Below are positions 597 through 56,622 of a DNA stretch of 64,000 nucleotides, piece by piece. The notes beneath the pieces were generated by a model. The model made no database searches and was not told the DNA's origin. It saw nothing but the letters and a program-made list of their open reading frames with translations. The stretch's first letter is position 1; every line of letters starts with the position of its first letter. The stretch is from a bacterium (GTDB lineage Bacteria; Patescibacteriota; Patescibacteriia; UBA1558; UBA10009), in the NCBI GenBank assembly GCA_018672055.1, contig JABHGM010000001.1, positions 608,977-672,976 on the forward strand. Reading direction: 5' to 3'. A program made the position numbers and the translations under genes.

Positions 597-1868
597 ATGG
601 AAAGTTACTCAAATTTACCAAGTGGTTACAATTTAAAAAACAAGAAAATAATACTAGGTGTTAGCCTTTTGATCCTCGCGATCATTATTTTTTTTATTGG
701 CTTAGTAGTTGGCTTAAATAAGCAATTAGATTTAGAAAAATCACCTAGTGGAATTCAAGATACAGGTAGAGTACTAAATACCGATGCTTTACCTGAATAT
801 TTAGCTAAAGATGTTAATTTTAAGCTCTTTTGGAAGGTTTGGGATATAATTAGATCTAAGTATATAGATCGTGATCAAATAACTGATGCTCAGCTATTTT
901 ATGGCTCTATGAAGGGTGTAGTAGCTGCTTTAGGCGATCCATATTCTGTATTTTTAGATCCTGTCATATCTGAGGAATTTACTGAGGAGTTATCTGGTAA
1001 GTTTCAAGGTATTGGCGCTGAAATTGGTATGAAACAAGAACGTTTAACTATTATTTCACCTTTACCTGAATCACCAGCAGAAAAAGCCGGTTTAAAGCCA
1101 GGTGATAAGGTAATGGCTATTGATGGTAATGAAACTACAGGTATATCCTTAGATGAAGCTGTTAAGCAGATTAGAGGTGAAAAAGGTACTGAAGTTATTT
1201 TAACTGTGGCTCGTGAAAATGCAGATTCATTTTTAGACATAACTATTACTAGAGATACTATTGATATTAAAAGTGTAGTTTTAGAAATGAAAGATAATAT
1301 TGGATATATTAAATTAACTCATTTTAATCAAGATACAGCGCAAGAGTTTGGTGAAATTGTTAATGAACTTTTAACTAAGTCTCCTAAAGGTGTAATTCTA
1401 GATCTTAGAAATAATGCTGGTGGCTATTTAGACGTAGCTATAGAAATAGCTGGTTATTGGGTAAAAAATGGTGATGTTGTAGTTAAAGAAAGCTTTGGTG
1501 ATGTTGAAATTGATAGAAACTATAATTCAACAGGTCAAGAGCAACTTGCTAGTTATAAGACAGTAGTAATTGTAAATGGCGGTAGTGCTTCAGCCTCAGA
1601 AATTGTAGCTGGTGCTTTACAAGATTTTGAATTAGCTAATGTAGTTGGTGAGGTTACATTTGGTAAAGGTTCTGTACAAGAACTTGAACAATTAAGTGAT
1701 GGTTCATCTGTAAAAATAACAATTGCTCGTTGGTTAACACCATTTGGTAGATCTATTGATAAAGAAGGTGTTGCACCTGATGAGATTGTTGAATTCACTG
1801 AAGAGAATTATGAAAATGAGGAAGATCCACAATTAGATAGAGCTTTAGAAATAATAAATAACGAATAA
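597..1868 (+). CDS. ctpA: Carboxy-terminal processing protease (S41 family) with PDZ domain and N-terminal membrane anchor
   Basis: PDZ-like segment GIGAEIGMKQERLTIISPLPESPAEKAGLKPGDKVMAIDG. S41 core motifs LDLRNNAGGYL and GSASASEIVAGALQD. Hydrophobic N-terminus. Confidence 0.85.
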   Translation: MESYSNLPSGYNLKNKKIILGVSLLILAIIIFFIGLVVGLNKQLDLEKSPSGIQDTGRVLNTDALPEYLAKDVNFKLFWKVWDIIRSKYIDRDQITDAQLFYGSMKGVVAALGDPYSVFLDPVISEEFTEELSGKFQGIGAEIGMKQERLTIISPLPESPAEKAGLKPGDKVMAIDGNETTGISLDEAVKQIRGEKGTEVILTVARENADSFLDITITRDTIDIKSVVLEMKDNIGYIKLTHFNQDTAQEFGEIVNELLTKSPKGVILDLRNNAGGYLDVAIEIAGYWVKNGDVVVKESFGDVEIDRNYNSTGQEQLASYKTVVIVNGGSASASEIVAGALQDFELANVVGEVTFGKGSVQELEQLSDGSSVKITIARWLTPFGRSIDKEGVAPDEIVEFTEENYENEEDPQLDRALEIINNE

Positions 1869-1870
1869 CT

Positions 1871-2314
1871 ATGAAAGTAATATTAATCGAAGATGTTAAA
1901 AGTTTAGGGGAAAAAGGCGATGTAAAGAATGTAGCTAATGGCTATGCTCGTAATTTTTTAATTCCACAAGGACAAGTTAAGAGAGCTACTAAAGAAAATA
2001 TAGCTGAATTAAATAAGCTAAAAGAGAAAAGTGAAGTAAAGGAAGCTAAAGTATTAAAAAATAAGGTAGAAGTTACTAAGAAGTTAAAAAAAGTAGCTTT
2101 AAATTTTAAAGCTAAGGCTTCAGAGACTGGTCATTTATTTGCAGCTATAAATTCAAAAGATATAGCTTCTGAACTTCTTAAAAAAGGTATTAAAGTTAAA
2201 GCTTCACAATTAGTAATTGATAAGCCTCTTAAAGAAGTAGGTAATAATGAGATAAAAGTTAAAATAAATAATGAAGAAGTGGTTTTAAATATAAAGATTG
2301 AAGCTATTAAATAA
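1871..2314 (+). CDS. rplI: 50S ribosomal protein L9
   Basis: N-terminus MKVILIEDVKSLGEKGDVKNVANGYARNFLIPQG is the canonical L9 signature. Size 147 aa. Confidence 0.9.
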   Translation: MKVILIEDVKSLGEKGDVKNVANGYARNFLIPQGQVKRATKENIAELNKLKEKSEVKEAKVLKNKVEVTKKLKKVALNFKAKASETGHLFAAINSKDIASELLKKGIKVKASQLVIDKPLKEVGNNEIKVKINNEEVVLNIKIEAIK

Positions 2315-2315
2315 T

Positions 2316-4007
2316 ATGGGTGATAAAAAAACAAAATACATATTTGTCTCAGGTGGTGTTTTATCAGGGCTTGGTAAAGGTGTTGTTGCTGCTTCACTTG
2401 GTACTCTTCTTCAAAATAGAGGATATAAGATAGGTGTTATTAAATGTGAGAACTATATTAACATAGATTCTGGTACTATTAATCCTATTGAACATGGAGA
2501 TCCTTTTTTATGTGAAGATGGCTTAGAAGCAGATATGGATCTTGGTACTTATGAAAGATTTTTAAATCAAGAAATGGGTCAAAGGAACTTTACTACCATG
2601 GGTCAGATATATAAGACAGTAATTGATAGAGAAAGATCATTTGGTTATAAAGGTGAAGATGTAGAAGCTATACCTCACGTTTCTGATGAAATAATTACTC
2701 GTATTAAAAACGCTGGTGAAGGTAAAGATATTATTATAATAGAACTGGGTGGTACAGCAGGTGAGTATCAAAATATGCTTTACTATGAAGCTTGTCGTAT
2801 TATGAAAGCTAAAATGCCAGGTAGAGTATTAAATATACATGTAAGTTATGTACCAATACCAAATCATATTGGTGAACCCAAAACAATGCCTACTCAATTA
2901 TCTATTAGAACTGTAATGAGTATGGGTATTTTACCTGAATTCTTAGTATTAAGATCAGAAGCTTTAATTGATAAGAGAAGAAAGTATTTATTAGGTTTAA
3001 AAACTAGTGTTGAGGGAGATAATGTAATAATGGCTCAAGATCTAGGCACTATCTATGAATTACCTGTAGTATTTGCTAAACAAGAATTTGATAGAAAAGT
3101 ACTTAAATATTTTAATTTACCACTTAGAACACCTAAACTTGGTGAATGGAATAAGATGGTTAAAAAGATTAAATCAGAAAAAAAGAGAAAGATTAATATA
3201 GTAATTGCTGGTAAATATATTAGTACAGGGGATTATGAATTACTTGATTCATATGCTTCCTTAATTGAGGCTATTCAACATGCTTGTTGGCATTTAAATA
3301 CAGAACTTAATTTAAGATTTGTAAATACTGAAGATATTGAAAAAGAAGGTGTTAAATTAATTAAAAAACCAGATGGTATTATTGTGCCAATTGGTTGGGG
3401 TAATAGGGGAGCTGAAGGTAAAATATCTGCTATTAAATACGCTCGTGAGAAAAAAATACCTTATTTAGGTTTGTGTTATGGTATGCAACTAGCTTGTGTT
3501 GAATTTGCTCGTAACGTAGTTGGTTTAAAAGATGCAAATTCAGTAGAAATGAATCCTGATACTCCGGACCCAATAATTCATGATATTCCTATGAATAGTA
3601 AGTATCAAGTTATAAAAGGTAAAGGAACTTCAATGAGACTTGGTTCATTTGATTGCTATTTAAAAAATAATACATTAGCTTCTTCAGTATATTTAAAGCA
3701 TAATCAAGCTGAAGAATTAAGTGATAATCAAAAAGCTAAAGAAAAAGTAACAGCAGCTGGCAATATTAAAATATCTGAAAGACATAGACATAGATTTGAA
3801 TTTAATAATGAGTATAGAGAAAAGCTAGAAGAAAAAGGTCTAATTATATCTGGTACTTCTCCTGATAACTTCTTTGTTGAAGTAATTGAATTACCTAAAT
3901 CTATGCATCCTTTCTTTATTGCTACACAAGGACATCCAGAGTATAAGTCATCACCACTTAAACCACATCCAATATTTGTTGAATTCCTTCGTGCTGGACT
4001 TAAATAA
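2316..4007 (+). CDS. pyrG: CTP synthase. The ORF track starts at 2298; the start at 2316 gives the canonical N-terminus.
   Basis: TKYIFVSGGVLSGLGKG P-loop-like N-terminus. C-terminal glutamine amidotransferase motifs (LGLCYGMQLA, GHPEYKS). ATG at 2316 follows the rplI stop. Confidence 0.9.
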   Translation: MGDKKTKYIFVSGGVLSGLGKGVVAASLGTLLQNRGYKIGVIKCENYINIDSGTINPIEHGDPFLCEDGLEADMDLGTYERFLNQEMGQRNFTTMGQIYKTVIDRERSFGYKGEDVEAIPHVSDEIITRIKNAGEGKDIIIIELGGTAGEYQNMLYYEACRIMKAKMPGRVLNIHVSYVPIPNHIGEPKTMPTQLSIRTVMSMGILPEFLVLRSEALIDKRRKYLLGLKTSVEGDNVIMAQDLGTIYELPVVFAKQEFDRKVLKYFNLPLRTPKLGEWNKMVKKIKSEKKRKINIVIAGKYISTGDYELLDSYASLIEAIQHACWHLNTELNLRFVNTEDIEKEGVKLIKKPDGIIVPIGWGNRGAEGKISAIKYAREKKIPYLGLCYGMQLACVEFARNVVGLKDANSVEMNPDTPDPIIHDIPMNSKYQVIKGKGTSMRLGSFDCYLKNNTLASSVYLKHNQAEELSDNQKAKEKVTAAGNIKISERHRHRFEFNNEYREKLEEKGLIISGTSPDNFFVEVIELPKSMHPFFIATQGHPEYKSSPLKPHPIFVEFLRAGLK

Positions 4008-4042: not shown

Positions 4043-5149
4043 ATGGGTAGTGAGCAACCAAAAATTGAGACAATAGAGGGTCAATCAGATAGTAATATAT
4101 CTGAGGAAGATATTAAAAATTTTAAAAAGCCAGAATCACCTGAGCTTGTAGACGAAATGATGGAGAGTGTAACTGAAGATGAGAAAAAAGCACTAATAAA
4201 TATTAACGAACAGCTTCCTAGTAGTGTAAAAGCACAAATTCTTGCAGGAGTTAAAAATAACATTCAAATTTTAAAAGAGTTTGGAAACAATATAGGTGAA
4301 AAGATTGATTGGGACAAAGTAGATAAAAAGAAATTAATTGCTTTAGGCATATATGGAGCTGGTGCATTAATGGGTGGTGTTGCAGATAATGTTGAAGCTG
4401 AAGATTCCAATGATGGACTTGATTCTGATTTTATTAAAGGTACTTTATCATCTTCAATTAGCAATTTTGAACAGATTGATGGATTATCACAGGAAGAGGG
4501 TAGTCTATTTATAAGAAAAGCAATAGCTTTAGCTGAAGTAAATGATATGGATAGATTGAATTATGGATTTGCCGTGAATGAAATGGAATCATGGGTAAAA
4601 TATTCTCATGAAAATAATGTTTCGATGCAACAGTTTGAGTATGGCTTAGATGAGATTGTTGCTAAGTTTTCTGAACCTGAGAATAAAGAAGGTAGTGATG
4701 ATCAAGAATCTGCAGAATTTAATAAATACGAAGACATGACAGCTGATTTACCAGAGACAGGAGAATTAGAGTTTAATGATAATTTTTCTGAATATGAAAA
4801 GATGCAAATACAGGAATACTATGATGTTAATGTAGGGACAGTTAATGAATTGACTAAACTGTTGACAGAATGGGAAGCTAAATATGGATATAAATCTAAT
4901 TTTGCTTCATTTGAAAATAATGTAAAAGATAGGGTAGATTCAATTATTAGTGAATTAAATGATATAAAAGATGGAGTACAGAGATCTGATTATAAAATAG
5001 AAGTAAGTATTAGTAGTGTAGGTGGTAATCCTTCTAGATTGAAAGCTGAAGGAATAATGAATATAGTTGAGGCTAAGAGTCATTTATTAAGTGATAGTGA
5101 AATAATTGAAAAACTTTTTGATGATATGAAAAAAGAGACAGGAAGGTAA
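4043..5149 (+). CDS. Hypothetical acidic protein (368 aa) inside the repeat-bounded insert
   Basis: Long ORF rich in D/E with no recognisable catalytic motif. Own terminator downstream. Confidence 0.5.
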   Translation: MGSEQPKIETIEGQSDSNISEEDIKNFKKPESPELVDEMMESVTEDEKKALININEQLPSSVKAQILAGVKNNIQILKEFGNNIGEKIDWDKVDKKKLIALGIYGAGALMGGVADNVEAEDSNDGLDSDFIKGTLSSSISNFEQIDGLSQEEGSLFIRKAIALAEVNDMDRLNYGFAVNEMESWVKYSHENNVSMQQFEYGLDEIVAKFSEPENKEGSDDQESAEFNKYEDMTADLPETGELEFNDNFSEYEKMQIQEYYDVNVGTVNELTKLLTEWEAKYGYKSNFASFENNVKDRVDSIISELNDIKDGVQRSDYKIEVSISSVGGNPSRLKAEGIMNIVEAKSHLLSDSEIIEKLFDDMKKETGR

Positions 5150-6058: not shown

Positions 6059-7861
6059 ATGGAAAATAGTGGTGAAAAATTTTTACACCAAAAAGATCCT
6101 AAATTACACGTTAGTGATTTTGTTGAACACGAGCAATCTAGAAAGAAGAGATCAAGTCAAGAAACATCACAAAAGCCTGTTGATAAGATTTCTGATTGGT
6201 TAGAAGTTATTGAAAAAACTCATATGGGTCATGAAGATGACCCTCGTGTTTTAGAACGTCTTAAAGATTATTATCATAACCAGCATGTTATTAAACCAGA
6301 TGATGTTCCAGAAAGCTATTTTGAAAATCAGAGAAGATTAGCTAGAGAACAAGGGCATGGTGATGTTGAAGTTTCAGATATAGATAAACAACAATTAACT
6401 GAAGCAATTATTTCAGATCAACGTTCTACTCTTGATAATTGGATAAATTATTACACTTCTTCACATTCAGAAAGTTTTCCTACTTGGTCTAAGCATTGGT
6501 CATTTAATGGCATGTTGAAATTATCAAATTATGATAAGGAAAAACATAAATTTAATAAAAGAAGTAAAGATACTGTAGCTCCTTTTCCAGATTTAAATCG
6601 TGAAGCTTTAGCTCATGTAGTTAATGCAATAGTGAAACAAGTTAAAGATGTAAAAGTGAAAGAAGCTAAAGATAAACAAGTTAAAGATGAAGATACACTA
6701 GATATACAGAAGGATCCAGAATTTGAAAAATTACTTCAAGATGCTAATTTTGCTAAACTATATGCTTATGCAATTGAAAAGGTAACTCCTGCTAAGGAAA
6801 GTGAATTATTAAGCACTAAAGGTGAATGGATTAAATATGATAAAGATTCAGATCATATGCCATTAGTTAATTCAATTCAAGGTCATGGTACTGGTTGGTG
6901 TACAGCTGGAGAATCAACAGCTGAAAGTCAGCTAAAAAATGGTGACTTTTTTGTTTATTATTCTCAAGATAAAAAAGGTGATTTTAAGACTCCTAGAGCA
7001 GCTATTAGAATGAATGGTAATGATATAGCTGAAGTTAGAGGTATAGCTCATGAACAAAATTTAGATCCATATATTAATGATACAGTAGACGAAAAATTAA
7101 AAGATTTTCCAAATGGTGAAGCGTATAAAAAGAAAACAGCTGATATGAAAAGATTAACTGAAATTGAAAATATTTTAAAAAAGGGACGAGAATTAGATAA
7201 AAATGATTTGAGATTTTTATATCAAGTTGATGATACAATAGAAGGATTTGGCTATCGTGATGATCCTAGAATAGAAGAAATTATAGAAGAAAGAGATAAA
7301 AAAAGTGATTTATCTCAAATTTTTAATATTGAAAAAAATAAGATTAGTATAACTAAAAATGAAGCGATTAATAACGAAGATATTGTTTATCATTATGGTG
7401 GTCTTTATCTAACCGGCTTAACTTCACTAGAAGGTTTAAAATTACCGGAAACTGTTAATGGTGATTTAGATCTAAGAGGTTTAACTTCAGCAGAAGGTTT
7501 AAGATTGCCAGAAACTGTCAATGGTAATTTAAATCTAAGCGGCTTAACTTCAGCAGAAGGCTTAAAACTACCAGAAACTGTCAATGGTAATTTAAGTCTA
7601 ATCAGCCTAACCTCAGCAGAAGGCTTAAAATTTCCAGAAACTGTCAATGGTAATTTAAATCTAATCAGCTTAACTTCAGCAGATGGTTTAAATCTCCCAG
7701 AAACTGTCAATGGTGGTCTTCATCTAACCGGCTTAACTTCACTAGAAGGCTTAAAACTGCCAGAAACTGTCAATGGTTTTATTTATATAGGAGGCTTAGT
7801 AGAGGCAGAAATATCAGATTTAAAAAAAAGTGATAAAGTTTTCATGGTTAAAGAAGGTTGA
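6059..7861 (+). CDS. Large hypothetical protein (600 aa) with six C-terminal 20-aa leucine-rich (LRR-like) tandem repeats
   Basis: Repeats LTSxEGLKLPETVNGxLxLxG occur six times. The N-terminal ~440 aa are non-repetitive. Confidence 0.6.
   Translation: MENSGEKFLHQKDPKLHVSDFVEHEQSRKKRSSQETSQKPVDKISDWLEVIEKTHMGHEDDPRVLERLKDYYHNQHVIKPDDVPESYFENQRRLAREQGHGDVEVSDIDKQQLTEAIISDQRSTLDNWINYYTSSHSESFPTWSKHWSFNGMLKLSNYDKEKHKFNKRSKDTVAPFPDLNREALAHVVNAIVKQVKDVKVKEAKDKQVKDEDTLDIQKDPEFEKLLQDANFAKLYAYAIEKVTPAKESELLSTKGEWIKYDKDSDHMPLVNSIQGHGTGWCTAGESTAESQLKNGDFFVYYSQDKKGDFKTPRAAIRMNGNDIAEVRGIAHEQNLDPYINDTVDEKLKDFPNGEAYKKKTADMKRLTEIENILKKGRELDKNDLRFLYQVDDTIEGFGYRDDPRIEEIIEERDKKSDLSQIFNIEKNKISITKNEAINNEDIVYHYGGLYLTGLTSLEGLKLPETVNGDLDLRGLTSAEGLRLPETVNGNLNLSGLTSAEGLKLPETVNGNLSLISLTSAEGLKFPETVNGNLNLISLTSADGLNLPETVNGGLHLTGLTSLEGLKLPETVNGFIYIGGLVEAEISDLKKSDKVFMVKEG
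7396..7790 (+). repeat. Six in-frame 60-bp tandem coding repeats with a duplicated lead-in
   Basis: Units start at 7418. The first and sixth units, and the GGTGGTCTT(T/C)ATCTAACCGGC lead-in before them, are near-identical. The antisense ORF 7405..7710 is a repeat shadow. Confidence 0.85.
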
Positions 7862-8615: not shown

Positions 8616-9011
8616 TTACTTTATTACAAATTCAATATTTATCTGGTCCGTAAATTTACCTTTGCTTTCATATAATATTCCAACAGAAATTATTACATTT
8701 TCATTCCAAGCTTTTTCTAAACCTTTAAAAGCTTTATCTGTTATTACAGTATTTGAAAATCCATAATATTCTCTTTGTTCAGTAGTTAGATGAATAGTTA
8801 CATGTCCTTTGTCTATTAACTTGTATACTATATCTAAGTCTATAATAAACTTTTTTAGCATACGAGGTGTAATAACATTTAACATGGTATTGATAGCGTC
8901 TGATTTATCTTTATCTACATCCGTGATTATTTCGCTAATTTTACCAAGCTTTTTTGATCTTTTTTGAATAACATTCATTAAATAATTATTTTGTAATTTA
9001 TCGGTCTCCAT
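8616..9011 (-). CDS. Small-protein family member A (131 aa); function unknown
   Basis: Homologous to the 9786..10196 and 16096..16461 products (shared YY/…LEKAWNENVII block). RBS AAAGAGG present. Confidence 0.6.
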   Translation of the reverse strand: METDKLQNNYLMNVIQKRSKKLGKISEIITDVDKDKSDAINTMLNVITPRMLKKFIIDLDIVYKLIDKGHVTIHLTTEQREYYGFSNTVITDKAFKGLEKAWNENVIISVGILYESKGKFTDQINIEFVIK

Positions 9012-9032
9012 GATTATTCCTCTTTATTGTTT

Positions 9033-9093
9033 TATATGTGCAGTTTTTATACCTTATTACGCATTTATTATTTTGTCAATAATATATGTTATA
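9033..9093 (-). promoter_or_regulatory. Conserved ~75-bp upstream module P1 with TTGACAAAATAAT and TATAAAA elements
   Basis: Near-identical to 10222-10283 (upstream of paralog B). Contains TTGACA and TATAAA hexamers and the AAAGAGG RBS. Confidence 0.5.
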
Positions 9094-9785: not shown

Positions 9786-10196
9786 TTATTCCTTGATTTC
9801 TAGAAATACTAATTCGAATTTAATTTCTAACTTTTTCTCGTCTCTAGAAAGGTTTATGGGGAAGAATGTAAGATTAATTATTACGTTTCCATTCCATTTT
9901 TTTTCTAATAATTCAAATTTATTTTGAGTAAGGAATTTATCTTCAAAATAATATTTTCCTATATCATTACCTTCTAATACTATAGAAATTTTTTCTTTAT
10001 ATAGTAACTTCTCTAGTATACTATAGTCTTGAATAAAATCTTTTAGGTTATCTGGTGTCTTATGCAGAAAAGTTCTAATTACGTTAGATTCATATTCATC
10101 TCCCATTTTAATCATTTTTTTAACACTTTCAAGTATTTCTGATCTGGCTAGAATGGCTTCTAACAAATGTTTTTCTTTTACATCACCTATAGCCAT
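9786..10196 (-). CDS. Small-protein family member B (136 aa)
   Basis: Homologous to 8616..9011 and 16096..16461. RBS AAAGGAG present. Confidence 0.6.
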   Translation of the reverse strand: MAIGDVKEKHLLEAILARSEILESVKKMIKMGDEYESNVIRTFLHKTPDNLKDFIQDYSILEKLLYKEKISIVLEGNDIGKYYFEDKFLTQNKFELLEKKWNGNVIINLTFFPINLSRDEKKLEIKFELVFLEIKE

Positions 10197-10221
10197 GATT
10201 ACTCCTTTTTGGCTTATTTTT

Positions 10222-10283
10222 TTATATGTTCAGTTTTTATACCTTATTACTCATTTATCATTTTGTCAATAATATATATATAA
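10222..10283 (-). promoter_or_regulatory. Conserved upstream module P2, paralogous to 9033-9093
   Basis: The TTATATGT(G/T)CAGTTTTTATACCTTATTAC(G/T)CATTTAT(T/C)ATTTTGTCAATAATATAT block is shared with P1. Confidence 0.5.
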
Positions 10284-53664: not shown

Positions 53665-53874
53665 ATGGAAGACACAAATCAACCAGCAGTAGAAAAAAAG
53701 AGTATGTGCGGAAAGATGAGTTTTTGCTGTTGTAAAGCATTTTTAGCTGCTTTAATTATTGTATTTGTCTGGTGGTGGACACCATCATGGGCAAATATTG
53801 CTATTACTGTTCTAGCTGCTTTAATAATAATTGGTTCAGGTACTTGCGGCTGTAAGAAGAATAAGAATTGCTAA
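53665..53874 (+). CDS. Cysteine-rich small membrane protein (69 aa)
   Basis: MCGKMSFCCCKAF…, one TM, C-terminal GTCGCKKNKNC. Nine Cys in 69 aa. Confidence 0.4.
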   Translation: MEDTNQPAVEKKSMCGKMSFCCCKAFLAALIIVFVWWWTPSWANIAITVLAALIIIGSGTCGCKKNKNC

Positions 53875-53887
53875 TAGTAATTTAAAA

Positions 53888-53917
53888 AAGAGTTAAGTAA
53901 AAATTAGCTCTTTTTTT
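53888..53917 (+). terminator. Putative terminator after the Cys-rich gene
   Basis: GAGTTAA-gtaaaaa-TTAGCTC (one mismatch) followed by TTTTTTTATT. Confidence 0.4.
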
Positions 53918-53920
53918 ATT

Positions 53921-53963
53921 ATCTATTATATTGCTTGACTTAAATTGAATAATTCATTAAAGT
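53921..53963 (+). promoter_or_regulatory. Cassette promoter module copy A (ATCTATTATATTGCTTGACTTAAA, then 17 bp, then TAAAGT)
   Basis: The first 24 bp recur at 54500-54523 and 55021-55044 with 1-3 mismatches. Confidence 0.5.
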
Positions 53964-53992
53964 AGTTGTAATAATTAAAAAAGGAGTAAGTC

Positions 53993-54433
53993 TTGAATAT
54001 AAAAGAAGTAATTGAAATAGCTAAATCAATTAAGCTAGGGGAGGAACGTACTTTTAATCTAGATAATGATTTAGATGTAATGGGAAGAGAAAAAATATTT
54101 TTTCAGCTTTCAAAAAATGGTACAGCAAAAACTTATTATGTTGGCGGAACTGGAAAAGAGTTGACTTTAAAATGTATTTCTCTAGATATTAAAATCGGTG
54201 ATTATTGGCTATTAGATTGTAATTCTCTTGTTTTCGTAATTGAGATCCTTCAATTCAATTCAGGATATAAATGCAATATAATAAGTGGAGTAAAATTTGA
54301 AGAGCAATATATTTGTTTGAAAGAAGCCTATGTGTCAGAAAATCATTTTATAGAAAAACTTAGTACTTACAAAGCTAGAGAAATTTTAAATAGTAAACAG
54401 GAACAAATAAAAAAAGATTTATTTGAACTATAA
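53993..54433 (+). CDS. Hypothetical soluble protein (146 aa), cassette 1, TTG start
   Basis: AAGGAG RBS 7 nt before TTG. Own promoter module and terminator. Confidence 0.45.
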   Translation: MNIKEVIEIAKSIKLGEERTFNLDNDLDVMGREKIFFQLSKNGTAKTYYVGGTGKELTLKCISLDIKIGDYWLLDCNSLVFVIEILQFNSGYKCNIISGVKFEEQYICLKEAYVSENHFIEKLSTYKAREILNSKQEQIKKDLFEL

Positions 54434-54447
54434 AAAAGTTTAAGTAT

Positions 54448-54482
54448 AAGGATTCCGTGTAAAAACAGGATCCTTATTTTAT
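54448..54482 (+). terminator. Rho-independent terminator of cassette 1
   Basis: TAAGGATTCC-gtgtaaaaaca-GGATCCTTA followed by TTTTATT. Confidence 0.6.
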
Positions 54483-54499
54483 TAAATAAAGTATTATAT

Positions 54500-54564
54500 A
54501 TCTATTATATTGCTTGACATTAACTATCAGTATGGTAAGTTGTAAAGTCAGTAAATTTACTGAT
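54500..54564 (+). promoter_or_regulatory. Cassette promoter module copy B plus 16-bp perfect palindrome TCAGTAAATTTACTGA (54548-54563)
   Basis: TTGACA at 54514-54519. A further TATCAGTA copy sits in the spacer. The palindrome lies at the predicted transcription start. Confidence 0.5.
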
Positions 54565-54590
54565 AAACGAACTTTAAAAGGGGGATTGAA

Positions 54591-54977
54591 ATGAGAAATT
54601 ATTTAAAGATTGCAATATTTCCGTTTGCACTTATTCTTTCAATATTTTTTATAAATATTACTTTAAAGGGTAATTATTTTGTAGCAGTATTGAGTATTTT
54701 ATTAGGCGTAGTAGCTTTTAATAGATTTAAAATCTATATTTCAAAGCCTTCATTTCTAATAGATTATATAGTTGTTATCTTAATAGCATTTGCTGCTCAA
54801 GTAAGTCATAATCCAACAGTAAGTATGTTTTCTACATTTTTTGCCATCGGTTTTACAACTTTTGGAACATATCTAATGTTTAATCTAAAATATCCAACTG
54901 AGCAATTTAAACATATTTTCCTATTGATGATATCGGCTACACTAACATTAATGGTAGTATTATTTAAAACTTTCTAG
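54591..54977 (+). CDS. Small 4-TM membrane protein (128 aa), cassette 2, paralog of 55114..55506
   Basis: AAAAGGGGGA RBS. Four hydrophobic helices. Same architecture and N-terminal pattern (M+NxxxLxxFPxxLILxxFxxNIxLK) as cassette 3. Confidence 0.55.
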   Translation: MRNYLKIAIFPFALILSIFFINITLKGNYFVAVLSILLGVVAFNRFKIYISKPSFLIDYIVVILIAFAAQVSHNPTVSMFSTFFAIGFTTFGTYLMFNLKYPTEQFKHIFLLMISATLTLMVVLFKTF

Positions 54978-54986
54978 TTACTACTT

Positions 54987-55016
54987 AAAGAGTGGACTTA
55001 ACCTTCACTCTTTTTT
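54987..55016 (+). terminator. Terminator of cassette 2
   Basis: AAGAGTG-gacttaacctt-CACTCTT followed by TTTTTAATT. Confidence 0.55.
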
Positions 55017-55020
55017 AATT

Positions 55021-55085
55021 ATCCATTATATTACTTGACTTAAACTATCAGTATGGTATATTGTAACGTCAGTAAAATTACTGAT
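55021..55085 (+). promoter_or_regulatory. Cassette promoter module copy C (TTGACT, 16 bp, TATATT) plus palindrome TCAGTAAAATTACTGA (55069-55084)
   Basis: Same arrangement as copy B. The palindrome starts ~6 nt after the -10. Confidence 0.55.
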
Positions 55086-55113
55086 AAATGAACTTTCTAA
55101 TAAGGAGAGAGAG

Positions 55114-55506
55114 ATGAAAAATATAATTAGACTTACAGTGTTTCCAACTGTCTTAATATTAGCAGTATTTATTCTAAATATCGTTTTAAAGAGTAACCTG
55201 ACAGTGGGAATTATTAGCGCTGTAGTAGTATGTGCGTTGTTTATTCTATTTTACTTACATGAACCTCTTGGTATAGTTGCATTACATTGTGTAGCAGTTA
55301 TTTTCGCAGTAGCCGCAGCTCAATCAATTGATGATACTATTGCAAGGGCAGTTACTGCGGTATTGGCTTCAGTTTTAGTAACTTGCGGATCTTATCTAGT
55401 TTTAGTTGATGACTATACAATGCCAATAAAAAATTATTACATATCTCTAACTATACAATTTGTAGTAACATTATTACCAATGTTATTTATAATATTATGG
55501 CTATAG
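55114..55506 (+). CDS. Small 4-TM membrane protein (130 aa), cassette 3
   Basis: TAAGGAGAGAGAG RBS. Paralogous to cassette 2. Confidence 0.55.
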   Translation: MKNIIRLTVFPTVLILAVFILNIVLKSNLTVGIISAVVVCALFILFYLHEPLGIVALHCVAVIFAVAAAQSIDDTIARAVTAVLASVLVTCGSYLVLVDDYTMPIKNYYISLTIQFVVTLLPMLFIILWL

Positions 55507-55523
55507 GAGTAATAAAATTATTA

Positions 55524-55557
55524 AAAGGGCGGAGTTTATTCTTCACCCTTTTTTTTA
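55524..55557 (+). terminator. Bidirectional terminator between cassette 3 and the recombinase gene
   Basis: AAAGGGCGGAG…CTTCACCCTTT followed by TTTTTTTATT. Confidence 0.5.
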
Positions 55558-56517
55558 TTCATTTAAATCTTTTCCGCTATGGAATTTACTATGTATGTCT
55601 TTTAATTTTTTTGAAACTACGTGAGTATATATTTGAGTTGTAGCAATACTTTTATGGCCTAAGAATTCTTGTACTGTTCTAATATCTACGCCTTTTTCTA
55701 ATAGATCAGTAGCAAAGCTGTGTCTAAGAGTATGGGGGACAGTATGAGCTGGTATACCAGTTTTTAAAGCATGTTTTTTTACTATACTTTCTATGGATCT
55801 TGTTGTTAAACGTAGGGGAGAGTCCTTTGGTCCGCTGTAACGTATAAATAGCGCTTTATCTGAATCATTTCTCGTGTTTAAATATTTTTTTATACATTCA
55901 ACAGCTCTTGCTGAAATATAGACAGTTCTAGGGACACTTCCCTTGCCAATTACAGAAATTTCTAAACTATCATTTATTTTAGGAATTTTTATTTGTTCTC
56001 GATTTAACGCTGTTAGTTCTGCAACACGAAGTCCTGTTGAAAATAATATTTCTAAAATAGATCTATCTCTTAAACCTACAGTAGTCTTAGTATTAGGGGA
56101 GAGGAGTAATTTTTCTACTTGGTCTAATGACAAGAAGTTAATATTTTTTTCTGTTTTTTGTTTACTTAACTTTATTTTTTCAGCTGGTATTGATTGTATA
56201 TCACGATCTGCAAAAAAATTAAGTATATTACGTAGAGCAATGAGGTAGTGGTTCTGTGTATTTTTAGTTAAAAGCTTATTAGTAGTTTTATTTACTTGTT
56301 TTGATAGATACACCCTATATTGCCAAATATCATTGCTAGTTAGCTCATGAGGCTTTATCTTGTCTTTTTTAACTAGTCTTAACCAAGTAAAGAACTTATT
56401 TAATTGCCTAGTATATGTTTCTTGGCTTCTATTACTAAGACCTTTCTCAATTTCTAAGTATTCTAAGAAATCAGTTAAATACTTAATGATTGGTTTTTTA
56501 CCTTTCTTTAGTGACAT
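55555..56517 (-). CDS. xerC: Tyrosine site-specific recombinase of the XerC/XerD type
   Basis: N-terminal SAM-like core-binding domain. Catalytic motifs …GLRVAELTALN…, HTLRHSFATDLLEKGVDIRTVQEFLGHKSIATTQIYTHV (R…HxxR…Y). Confidence 0.85.
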   Translation of the reverse strand: MSLKKGKKPIIKYLTDFLEYLEIEKGLSNRSQETYTRQLNKFFTWLRLVKKDKIKPHELTSNDIWQYRVYLSKQVNKTTNKLLTKNTQNHYLIALRNILNFFADRDIQSIPAEKIKLSKQKTEKNINFLSLDQVEKLLLSPNTKTTVGLRDRSILEILFSTGLRVAELTALNREQIKIPKINDSLEISVIGKGSVPRTVYISARAVECIKKYLNTRNDSDKALFIRYSGPKDSPLRLTTRSIESIVKKHALKTGIPAHTVPHTLRHSFATDLLEKGVDIRTVQEFLGHKSIATTQIYTHVVSKKLKDIHSKFHSGKDLNE

Positions 56518-56622
56518 AGTACTTTAGACTTCGATAAACTATTATTATACGAAGTGTTATTATACCTATATAATATAGTATATTTCTAATTTAATCAAGC
56601 TTCTCTCCTTATTCGAAGGTAA

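Follow-up and report, generated by a model that had tools for sequence, protein, structure and literature searches.

Organization of the locus

The window analyzed here is a 64,000-nucleotide stretch of contig JABHGM010000001.1 (assembly GCA_018672055.1, positions 608,977 to 672,976). It belongs to the chromosome of a marine member of the Patescibacteria (Candidate Phyla Radiation, CPR), roughly 1 Mb in size with 28.5% GC. The subject is an islet of small genes within it, which encode a 69-residue Cys-rich peptide, a 146-residue soluble protein, and two paralogous membrane proteins of 128 and 130 residues with five predicted helices. Each of the last three genes follows a copy of the same promoter module and is referred to as cassette 1, 2 or 3, in that order. 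The processes at work in the islet are of known kinds, tandem duplication and promoter reuse, and do not constitute a new cassette system.

The islet is flanked by conserved genes that run toward one another, gltX and an M23 peptidase gene on the plus strand and the series serS-alr-ddl-ftsQ-xer on the minus strand. Its neighbors are gltX, the M23 peptidase gene, WecG, xer, ftsQ and ddl. At ~ 55.5 kb, where the bidirectional terminator T3 lies, the genes of the two strands meet (Table 1).

As the preliminary description of the locus had it, every module copy heads a unit of its own. Each unit consists of a promoter, a Shine-Dalgarno sequence, an open reading frame (ORF) and a terminator that folds. 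Cassette 1 indeed encodes a soluble protein unrelated to the others, which is translated from a TTG codon preceded by the Shine-Dalgarno sequence AAGGAG. The products of cassettes 2 and 3 align over their full length without internal gaps (E = 5e-9, 27% identity, rising to 36% over the N-terminal 53 residues). Their earlier designation as paralogues therefore stands, but the four transmembrane segments proposed for them probably do not, because hydropathy and a low-confidence AlphaFold2 (AF2) model (predicted local distance difference test score, pLDDT, of 54) both give five helices.

Table 1 Coordinates of the features of the islet, the adjoining xer locus and the related loci.
Feature	Position	Strand	Description
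69-aa peptide gene	53665..53874	+	7 Cys, two hydrophobic segments; first gene of the lineage-specific islet
Terminator T0	53884..53920	+	13-bp stem followed by T-run; −11.6 kcal/mol, z = −4.1; opens D2
Module copy 1	53921..53944	+	−35 TTGACT 53935–53940; predicted −10 TAAAGT 53958–53963; 17-nt spacer; no palindrome
Cassette 1 gene	53993..54433	+	146-aa soluble protein; TTG start, AAGGAG Shine-Dalgarno 7 nt upstream
Terminator T1	54446..54484	+	−13.4 kcal/mol, z = −4.7; hairpin sequence unrelated to T0, T2 and T3
D1 copy A	54494..54598	+	Module copy 2 54500–54523; −35 TTGACA 54514–54519; predicted extended −10 TGgTAAGTT 54533–54541; leader with Shine-Dalgarno
Palindrome, cassette 2	54548..54563	+	TCAGTAAATTTACTGA
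Cassette 2 gene	54591..54977	+	128-aa membrane protein, five predicted helices
D2 copy B	54987..55044	+	Terminator T2 54987–55013, T-run, module copy 3 55021–55044
D1 copy B	55015..55119	+	−35 TTGACT 55035–55040; predicted extended −10 TGgTATATT 55054–55062; leader
Palindrome, cassette 3	55069..55084	+	TCAGTAAAATTACTGA
Cassette 3 gene	55114..55506	+	130-aa membrane protein, paralogue of the 128-aa protein
Bidirectional terminator T3	55523..55554	.	Common to cassette 3 and xer; both strands fold, −12.9 and −12.4 kcal/mol
Xer-type tyrosine recombinase gene	55555..56517	−	320 aa; neighbor of the array, not part of it
dif-like site	56528..56555	−	ACTTCGTATAA-TAATAG-TTTATCGAAGT; 11-6-11 28-mer, 11–38 nt upstream of the xer ATG
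gltX-xer small ORFs of relatives	L003 6474–6776; L007 6481–6882; L108 3354–3746; L109 2589–2906; L121 4334–4711; L122 4503–4874		Positions in the respective loci

The promoter module and the duplicated blocks

The 24-bp module, ATCYATTATATTRCTTGACWTWAA, matches exactly at the three positions first reported for it (53921–53944, 54500–54523 and 55021–55044), and copies 1 and 2 are identical across a 19-nt core. No further copy with up to three mismatches was found in the window, and shuffled sequences gave none. An additional 18.4 kb of flanking genome contained none either, so that the module is unique in about 82 kb. Scored against a 26-nt consensus, the three copies reach 25–26 of the 26 positions, and the next best site reaches 19, which equals the shuffled background. 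The sequence YATTATATTRCTTGACNTNAA gave 45 single matches in genome contigs and 54 in metagenome contigs, all in unrelated taxa and from collections that do not include this organism. None of these matches carries the 19-nt core or the palindrome described below.

The module comprises a −35 hexamer, 13 bp upstream of it, where an UP element would lie, and 5 bp on its downstream side. The other promoters of the window combine a strong TTGAC(A/T) −35 element and a 16–17 nt spacer with a TAnnnT −10 element that often follows TGn, and the module promoters share with them only the TTGAC(A/T) −35 and the TGnTAnnnT −10. Within the roughly 82 kb examined, the module is distinct from a generic promoter consensus of this genome, as the 13 bp upstream of its −35 element, ATCYATTATATTR, are not shared with the other promoters of the window. 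Because those promoters show the pattern described above, the TTGAC of the module was assigned as the −35 element and the conserved TATGGTA as an extended −10 element, which places the palindrome at about +1. Cassettes 1, 2 and 3 are predicted from this consensus to be driven by sigma-70-type promoters with TTGAC(A/T), a spacer of 16–17 nt and the −10 sequences TAAAGT, TGgTAAGTT and TGgTATATT, respectively. The TATATT within the module was considered as a −10 element and rejected; copy 2 has no matching −35, and all other promoters of the window use TTGAC(A/T).

The module is real, but alignment of the upstream regions shows that the repeats extend well beyond the 24 bp originally reported. 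Repeat D1 is 105 nt long (54494–54598 and 55015–55119, 79% identical) and in cassettes 2 and 3 takes in the promoter, the leader and the opening codons. Repeat D2 is 58 nt long (53887–53944 and 54987–55044, 81% identical) and consists of the terminator hairpin, T-run and module that precede cassettes 1 and 3. Both copies of D2 lie 49–127 nt upstream of their start codons. The genes on either side of D2 are non-homologous, as tblastn at E ≤ 1 matched the 146-residue protein to neither membrane protein, nor the 69-residue peptide to the 128-residue protein. The four terminators fold with energies of −9.7 to −13.4 kcal/mol and z-scores of −3.1 to −4.7, a T-run follows each, and those of cassettes 2 and 3 are related to each other (repeat D13). 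Copy 3 resembles copy 1 in the sequence that precedes the module and copy 2 in the sequence that follows it, a pattern that fits placement of the 146-residue protein gene inside an ancestral unit.

Putative mobile promoters have been defined as sequences of >50 nt with at least 80% identity that occupy the −150 to −50 region of non-homologous coding sequences (CDSs) in one genome (Matus-Garcia, Nijveen & van Passel 2012, PMC3488235). D2, with its predicted promoter, falls within this operational definition. Its 58 nt, 81% identical, stand upstream of the non-homologous genes for the 146- and 130-residue proteins, and the CDSs that precede it (69 and 128 residues) are also non-homologous. Unlike the published cases, the D2 copies are not dispersed but neighbor each other at a distance of 1.1 kb, and the block includes the preceding terminator. 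The present set has three known members, from about 82 kb scanned.

The palindrome and the conserved leader of cassettes 2 and 3

A 16-bp palindrome, TCAGTAAA(T/A)TTACTGA, is common to cassettes 2 and 3; it is a perfect 7-2-7 repeat located at about +1 of the predicted transcript and occurs nowhere else in the window. A third half-site, TATCAGTA, lies in the −35/−10 spacer of both cassettes (54525–54532 and 55046–55053), exactly 21 bp upstream of the TCAGTA of the palindrome in each copy. Both elements had been recognized in the preliminary description and were found where it placed them. Chance matching predicts 0.46 palindrome matches per window at ≤ 2 mismatches, and no shuffled sequence reached the observed count.

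The 83 nt upstream of the cassette 2 and 3 genes are 86% identical, compared with 53% for the coding DNA, where third codon positions are 52% identical and composition alone predicts 36%. The best-kept segment, about 90% identical, covers ~ 60 nt from the −35 element to about +30, at a GAACTTT motif. The two cassettes resemble a tandem duplication with co-duplicated promoter and operator in that they are adjacent paralogues of like orientation that have promoter and leader in common and end in related terminators. They differ from it in the disparity between regulatory and coding identity, which implies constraint or gene conversion upstream. Since the upstream block is far better kept than the coding DNA, either purifying selection would act on the regulatory block or gene conversion would be confined to it. 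From this conservation we infer that the block is a shared cis-regulatory site, and the palindrome is probably an operator.

The same palindrome may instead act as RNA. In that case a 5′-terminal stem-loop (7 bp with a 4-nt loop) starting at +1/+2 would shield the mRNAs of the two membrane proteins from 5′-end-dependent decay or modulate their translation, with no DNA-binding regulator involved. The hairpin is the centroid structure of both leaders (−6.9 and −6.7 kcal/mol, z = −1.8 and −3.2, for leaders of 60–62 nt). It begins within 1–2 nt of the predicted transcription start, and the sole difference between the two palindromes lies in its loop. The lack of a nearby regulator gene among ten small ORFs is in keeping with this reading, which is a serious rival and not mutually exclusive with the operator, yet on balance possible rather than probable. 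An RNA hairpin leaves unexplained the TATCAGTA half-site, which lies 21 bp away, a helical-repeat distance, within a spacer that is not transcribed. It also does not explain why the conserved block reaches upstream of the predicted start. Rfam covariance models matched neither leader even at E ≤ 10 (in the whole window one tRNA alone reaches the gathering score), and the two copies offer no covariation in its support.

An upstream ORF at 54533–54594, MVSCKVSKFTDKRTLKGGLK, was also considered as a feature of the leader and rejected. Its ATG lies within the extended −10 element, copy 3 retains just 12 codons of the frame, and each of the four nucleotides at which the two copies differ alters an amino acid or creates a stop.

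The window contains a second, unrelated pair of orphan paralogues, of 131 and 136 residues, on the minus strand (8616–9011 and 9786–10196). The two proteins are 33% identical, and their promoters and 5′ untranslated regions are identical at ~ 58 of 62 nt (about 9026–9087 and about 10216–10277, minus strand; upstream sequence ATATATTATTGACAAAAT.ATAAATG.GTAATAAGGTATAAAAACTG.ACATATAAAA). As this pair follows the same pattern, a conserved promoter ahead of diverged coding sequence is not special to the islet.

The second pair suggests a general genomic process and not a locus-specific regulator, which favors the alternative that the upstream identity is non-functional and reflects recent or recurrent gene conversion limited to the promoter-leader block. 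The palindrome and half-site would then be passengers and the genes constitutive. We consider this improbable: it would be strange for conversion tracts in two independent gene pairs to end exactly where translation starts, and chance is unlikely to produce a perfect 16-bp palindrome together with a third half-site in phase.

The Xer recombinase and its dif-like site

The gene that faces the array encodes a tyrosine recombinase in whose translation the catalytic motifs R...K...HxxR...H...Y are readable. The protein aligns over its full length with the XerD and XerC models (about 224 bits, E about 3e-66), with scores below the NCBI equivalog cut-offs. The XerS model scores 110 bits, and integron-integrase models match the C-terminus only (TIGR02249, 102.6 bits against a cut-off of 265, C-terminal 239–312). 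Its closest solved structures in the PDB are XerA, XerD and XerC-like proteins, and it is 60–72% identical to orthologues from many Patescibacteria lineages.

A dif-like 28-mer is located just upstream of xer in all nine loci compared (the window and L003, L005, L007, L108, L109, L110, L121 and L122), which come from several metagenome sources, one of them labelled groundwater. The left arm, ACTTCGCATAA, resembles bacterial dif, which reads GGTGCGCATAA in E. coli. The nine-locus consensus is ACTTCG[T/C]ATAA-N6-TTTA[T/C]NGAAGT, positioned 5–45 nt upstream of the xer start codon. The arms are kept and the 6-bp center is variable, which at an xer gene is the hallmark of an Xer site. No second dif-like site was found in the window, where the next best matches (15–16 of 22 positions) equal the shuffled background, and none of at least 15 of 22 falls inside the array at 53.6–55.6 kb. 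The recombinase is best regarded as the chromosome-dimer-resolution enzyme of the clade, predicted to act on the adjacent dif-like site, and it neighbors the array by position only.

In streptococci and lactococci, difSL lies directly upstream of xerS (PMC1914069), and XerH/difH of Helicobacter is a single-recombinase Xer module with an adjacent dif (PMC3325230). The locus described here likewise has a recombination-site-like sequence directly upstream of xer, in a region where the GC skew appears to switch sign. It differs from XerS/difSL in that the protein aligns full-length with the XerC/XerD models and not with XerS, and from both systems in that the site, predicted from sequence, is a classical 11-6-11 28-mer. 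The comparison suggests that the CPR arrangement is an xer gene with an adjacent dif, as in XerS/difSL. Our literature search found no description of an xer-adjacent dif-like site for CPR. Such a site would mark replication termini in CPR genomes and metagenome-assembled genomes, and may prove more useful than the array itself.

Cumulative G−C over 82 kb reaches its maximum in bin 55597–56596, the same bin as the dif-like site, with the skew confounded by gene orientation. The skew peak and the convergence of the gene strands make the region of about 55500–56600 a probable replication terminus, with the same confounding.

Gene order in relatives and variation within the species

Two forms of gene order were seen around xer in the relatives. 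One is ddl-ftsQ-xer, as in the window (L005 and L110), and the other is murG-gltX-small ORF-xer-rpmA (L003, L007, L108, L109, L121 and L122). A position of xer at the end of a cell-wall/division gene cluster is thus the norm in the clade. The array had been thought to interrupt the division and cell wall (dcw) cluster by taking the place of ftsA-ftsZ. This is not borne out, since both relatives with the ddl-ftsQ-xer order are without the array, which therefore has not displaced these genes. The tubulin-signature motif GGGTG(S/T)G of ftsZ was absent from all six frames of the window, so that ftsZ lies elsewhere, as in the relatives with the same ftsQ-xer order. Of the relatives whose genes downstream of xer differ, L005 and L110 are the closest, and they carry unrelated small ORFs there. 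The spot downstream of xer varies between lineages, and the three-gene set is fixed within the species.

In the contig collection, 158 blocks index the 128-residue protein, and the 24 longest contigs among them were inspected. All 24 are conspecific and carry identical neighbor genes, which contradicts the variability expected of cassettes. Of the two contigs compared over 12.4 kb, one is identical to the window and the other departs from it at a single position, and members of the protein cluster differ solely by rare singletons on very short contigs.

These results bear on the view that the units form a mobile, promoter-carrying cassette array, comparable to an integron, a dif module or an Xer-exploiting integrative mobile element (IMEX), which was inserted by the neighboring recombinase and broke the dcw cluster. 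The array does adjoin a tyrosine recombinase, 1–2.6 kb from a dif-like site, its genes are lineage-specific, and the dif region of other bacteria is a known entry point for Xer-exploiting elements (PMC6744903). Integron arrays, Acinetobacter pdif modules and IMEX likewise present a series of single-gene units beside a tyrosine recombinase. The resemblance ends there. The recombinase is a full-length, conserved housekeeping enzyme of the XerC/XerD type with its own dif-like site, and no IntI-type integrase is found, the integron-integrase models matching its C-terminal part only. Unlike promoterless integron cassettes, the units here have their own TTGAC −35 and −10 elements, and their 3′ hairpins are of terminator type with T-runs only (no attC model was run). 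Unlike pdif modules and IMEX, the array has no flanking dif-like sites, the window holding a single one, and shows no variability between genomes, as the same locus recurs in 24 of 24 conspecific contigs. Together with the ftsQ-xer synteny in relatives without the array and the native base composition, these features leave insertion by the recombinase extremely unlikely.

A foreign origin by base composition was likewise rejected, as the GC content of the cassettes and their GC content at third codon positions match those of neighboring core genes. Two scans of viral contigs yielded chance matches only, with the sole palindrome match inside a phage coding region, and tblastn of the 146-residue protein against phages found nothing.

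The orphan proteins

The three cassette proteins are species-specific orphans as judged by sequence searches. Pfam, NCBIfam, PHROG and PADLOC gave no significant family for them or for the 69-residue peptide. In a word-indexed search of 5.8 billion proteins the 146-residue protein and the two membrane proteins matched themselves only, and a profile of the membrane paralogues recovered just its two members among 1.84 billion representative proteins. Sequence searches of the PDB gave no usable relative for any of the three; a 27-residue match of the 146-residue protein (E = 1e-3) was disregarded. The AF2 models are poor, with a pLDDT of 54 for the membrane protein and 44 for the 146-residue protein, the latter being uninformative.

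The 69-residue peptide had been described as a Cys-rich membrane peptide upstream of the array. Its seven Cys residues cluster at both Lys-rich termini (CxxxxxCCC ... CxCxxxxxC), and a WWW motif separates its two hydrophobic segments. These segments and the Lys-rich termini suggest that it resides in the membrane. The gene starts 21 nt past that of the M23 peptidase, and the two are therefore probably co-transcribed. The peptide forms a single-member cluster, yet occurs on 84 contigs.

With its small orphan proteins, one of them a Cys-rich peptide, and its pair of duplicated, small polytopic membrane proteins, the islet has a layout loosely reminiscent of immunity gene pairs. A bacteriocin/immunity-like locus had been proposed. 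In a bacteriocin/immunity or toxin/immunity locus, the 69-residue peptide or the 146-residue protein would act as effector, and immunity would fall to the membrane paralogues. No family match or accessory gene favors this proposal. The peptide has neither a leader peptide nor a double-glycine motif, no C39 peptidase, ABC exporter, modification enzyme or two-component system is encoded within 10 kb on either side, and PADLOC, PHROG, Pfam and NCBIfam gave no significant match. A bacteriocin or immunity function is therefore very unlikely.

Proposed origin of the islet

The explanation that we favor, and hold to be reasonably likely, is that the islet holds terminus-proximal genes specific to the lineage, which arose through tandem duplication and the reuse of a promoter, and that the palindrome upstream of two of them is probably an operator. 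A whole unit of promoter, leader, gene and terminator would have been duplicated in tandem to give cassettes 2 and 3. The 58-nt terminator-plus-promoter block would have been reused ahead of the unrelated 146-residue protein gene, by promoter propagation of the kind described in PMC3488235. That gene may have been placed inside the ancestral unit with duplication of the module, in an order of events that we can only infer. The putative repressor, a dimer, would occupy the 16-bp palindrome at +1 as well as the half-site that lies 21 bp upstream in the spacer, on the same face of the DNA. This would place both membrane paralogues under common control, from which cassette 1 would be exempt.

Several points weigh against this explanation. 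The spread of the module is known over about 82 kb, and about 91% of the genome lies outside the scans. The transcription starts and the use of the promoters are predictions. Pfam detects no DNA-binding domain among ten small ORFs of the window, which leaves no candidate repressor nearby. The 7-bp stem also folds as a 5′-end RNA hairpin (−6.9 kcal/mol), and with only two copies of the palindrome covariation cannot separate a DNA-level from an RNA-level function. Gene conversion rather than selection could explain the high upstream identity. Finally, the GC skew that places the islet near the terminus is confounded with gene orientation and covers 82 kb rather than the whole chromosome.

The observations of the preliminary description are confirmed and its interpretation is partly supported, the recombinase link and the idea of a cassette system being the parts without support. 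The value of the duplication-and-reuse explanation is mainly corrective, since what appeared to be a recombinase-linked cassette system is duplication and promoter reuse beside a housekeeping Xer. The islet is also a clean natural case, within a reduced CPR genome, of duplicated orphan genes whose regulatory DNA has outlasted the coding sequence. In addition, it provides a testable promoter-operator pair for a group with almost no experimentally defined promoters.

A bolder extension, which we regard as quite improbable, is that the 58-nt terminator-promoter block and the 83-nt promoter-operator block are portable expression modules of this CPR lineage, copies of which would drive other orphan genes elsewhere in the genome, with a lineage-specific repressor binding the TCAGTA half-sites. 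If this were true, small genes that had newly arisen or been acquired would be drawn by such modules into a single regulon near the replication terminus.

Further features of the related loci and the window

The gltX-xer gap of the relatives is occupied by a gene for a protein of 100–133 residues without a Pfam match, which begins with a signal or anchor and is otherwise charged and helical, resembling a coiled coil (Table 1). This small protein could be a short division protein in the place of ftsQ. A link between these ORFs and the membrane paralogues of the islet was rejected, as the signal-anchored coiled-coil proteins that they encode show no similarity to the 128- and 130-residue proteins.

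The block of S41 peptidase, L9 and pyrG, found at 597–4007 of the window and thus ~ 52 kb from xer, lies beside xer-rpmA in several relatives (L003, L007, L108, L109 and L121). Relative to these same five loci, gltX is here on the opposite side and strand of xer. The displaced positions of the block and of gltX suggest inversions around the xer/dif region.

In L121, a locus from a JGI metagenome, a short tandem array of CATTCCA(A/G)CA-like units is present at about 4800–4900, between a terminator and the xer promoter. Within the window, a 600-residue protein is encoded at 6059–7861 on the plus strand, and its C-terminal part consists of about eight near-identical 20-residue repeats (LTSAEGLKLPETVNGNLNLS-like).

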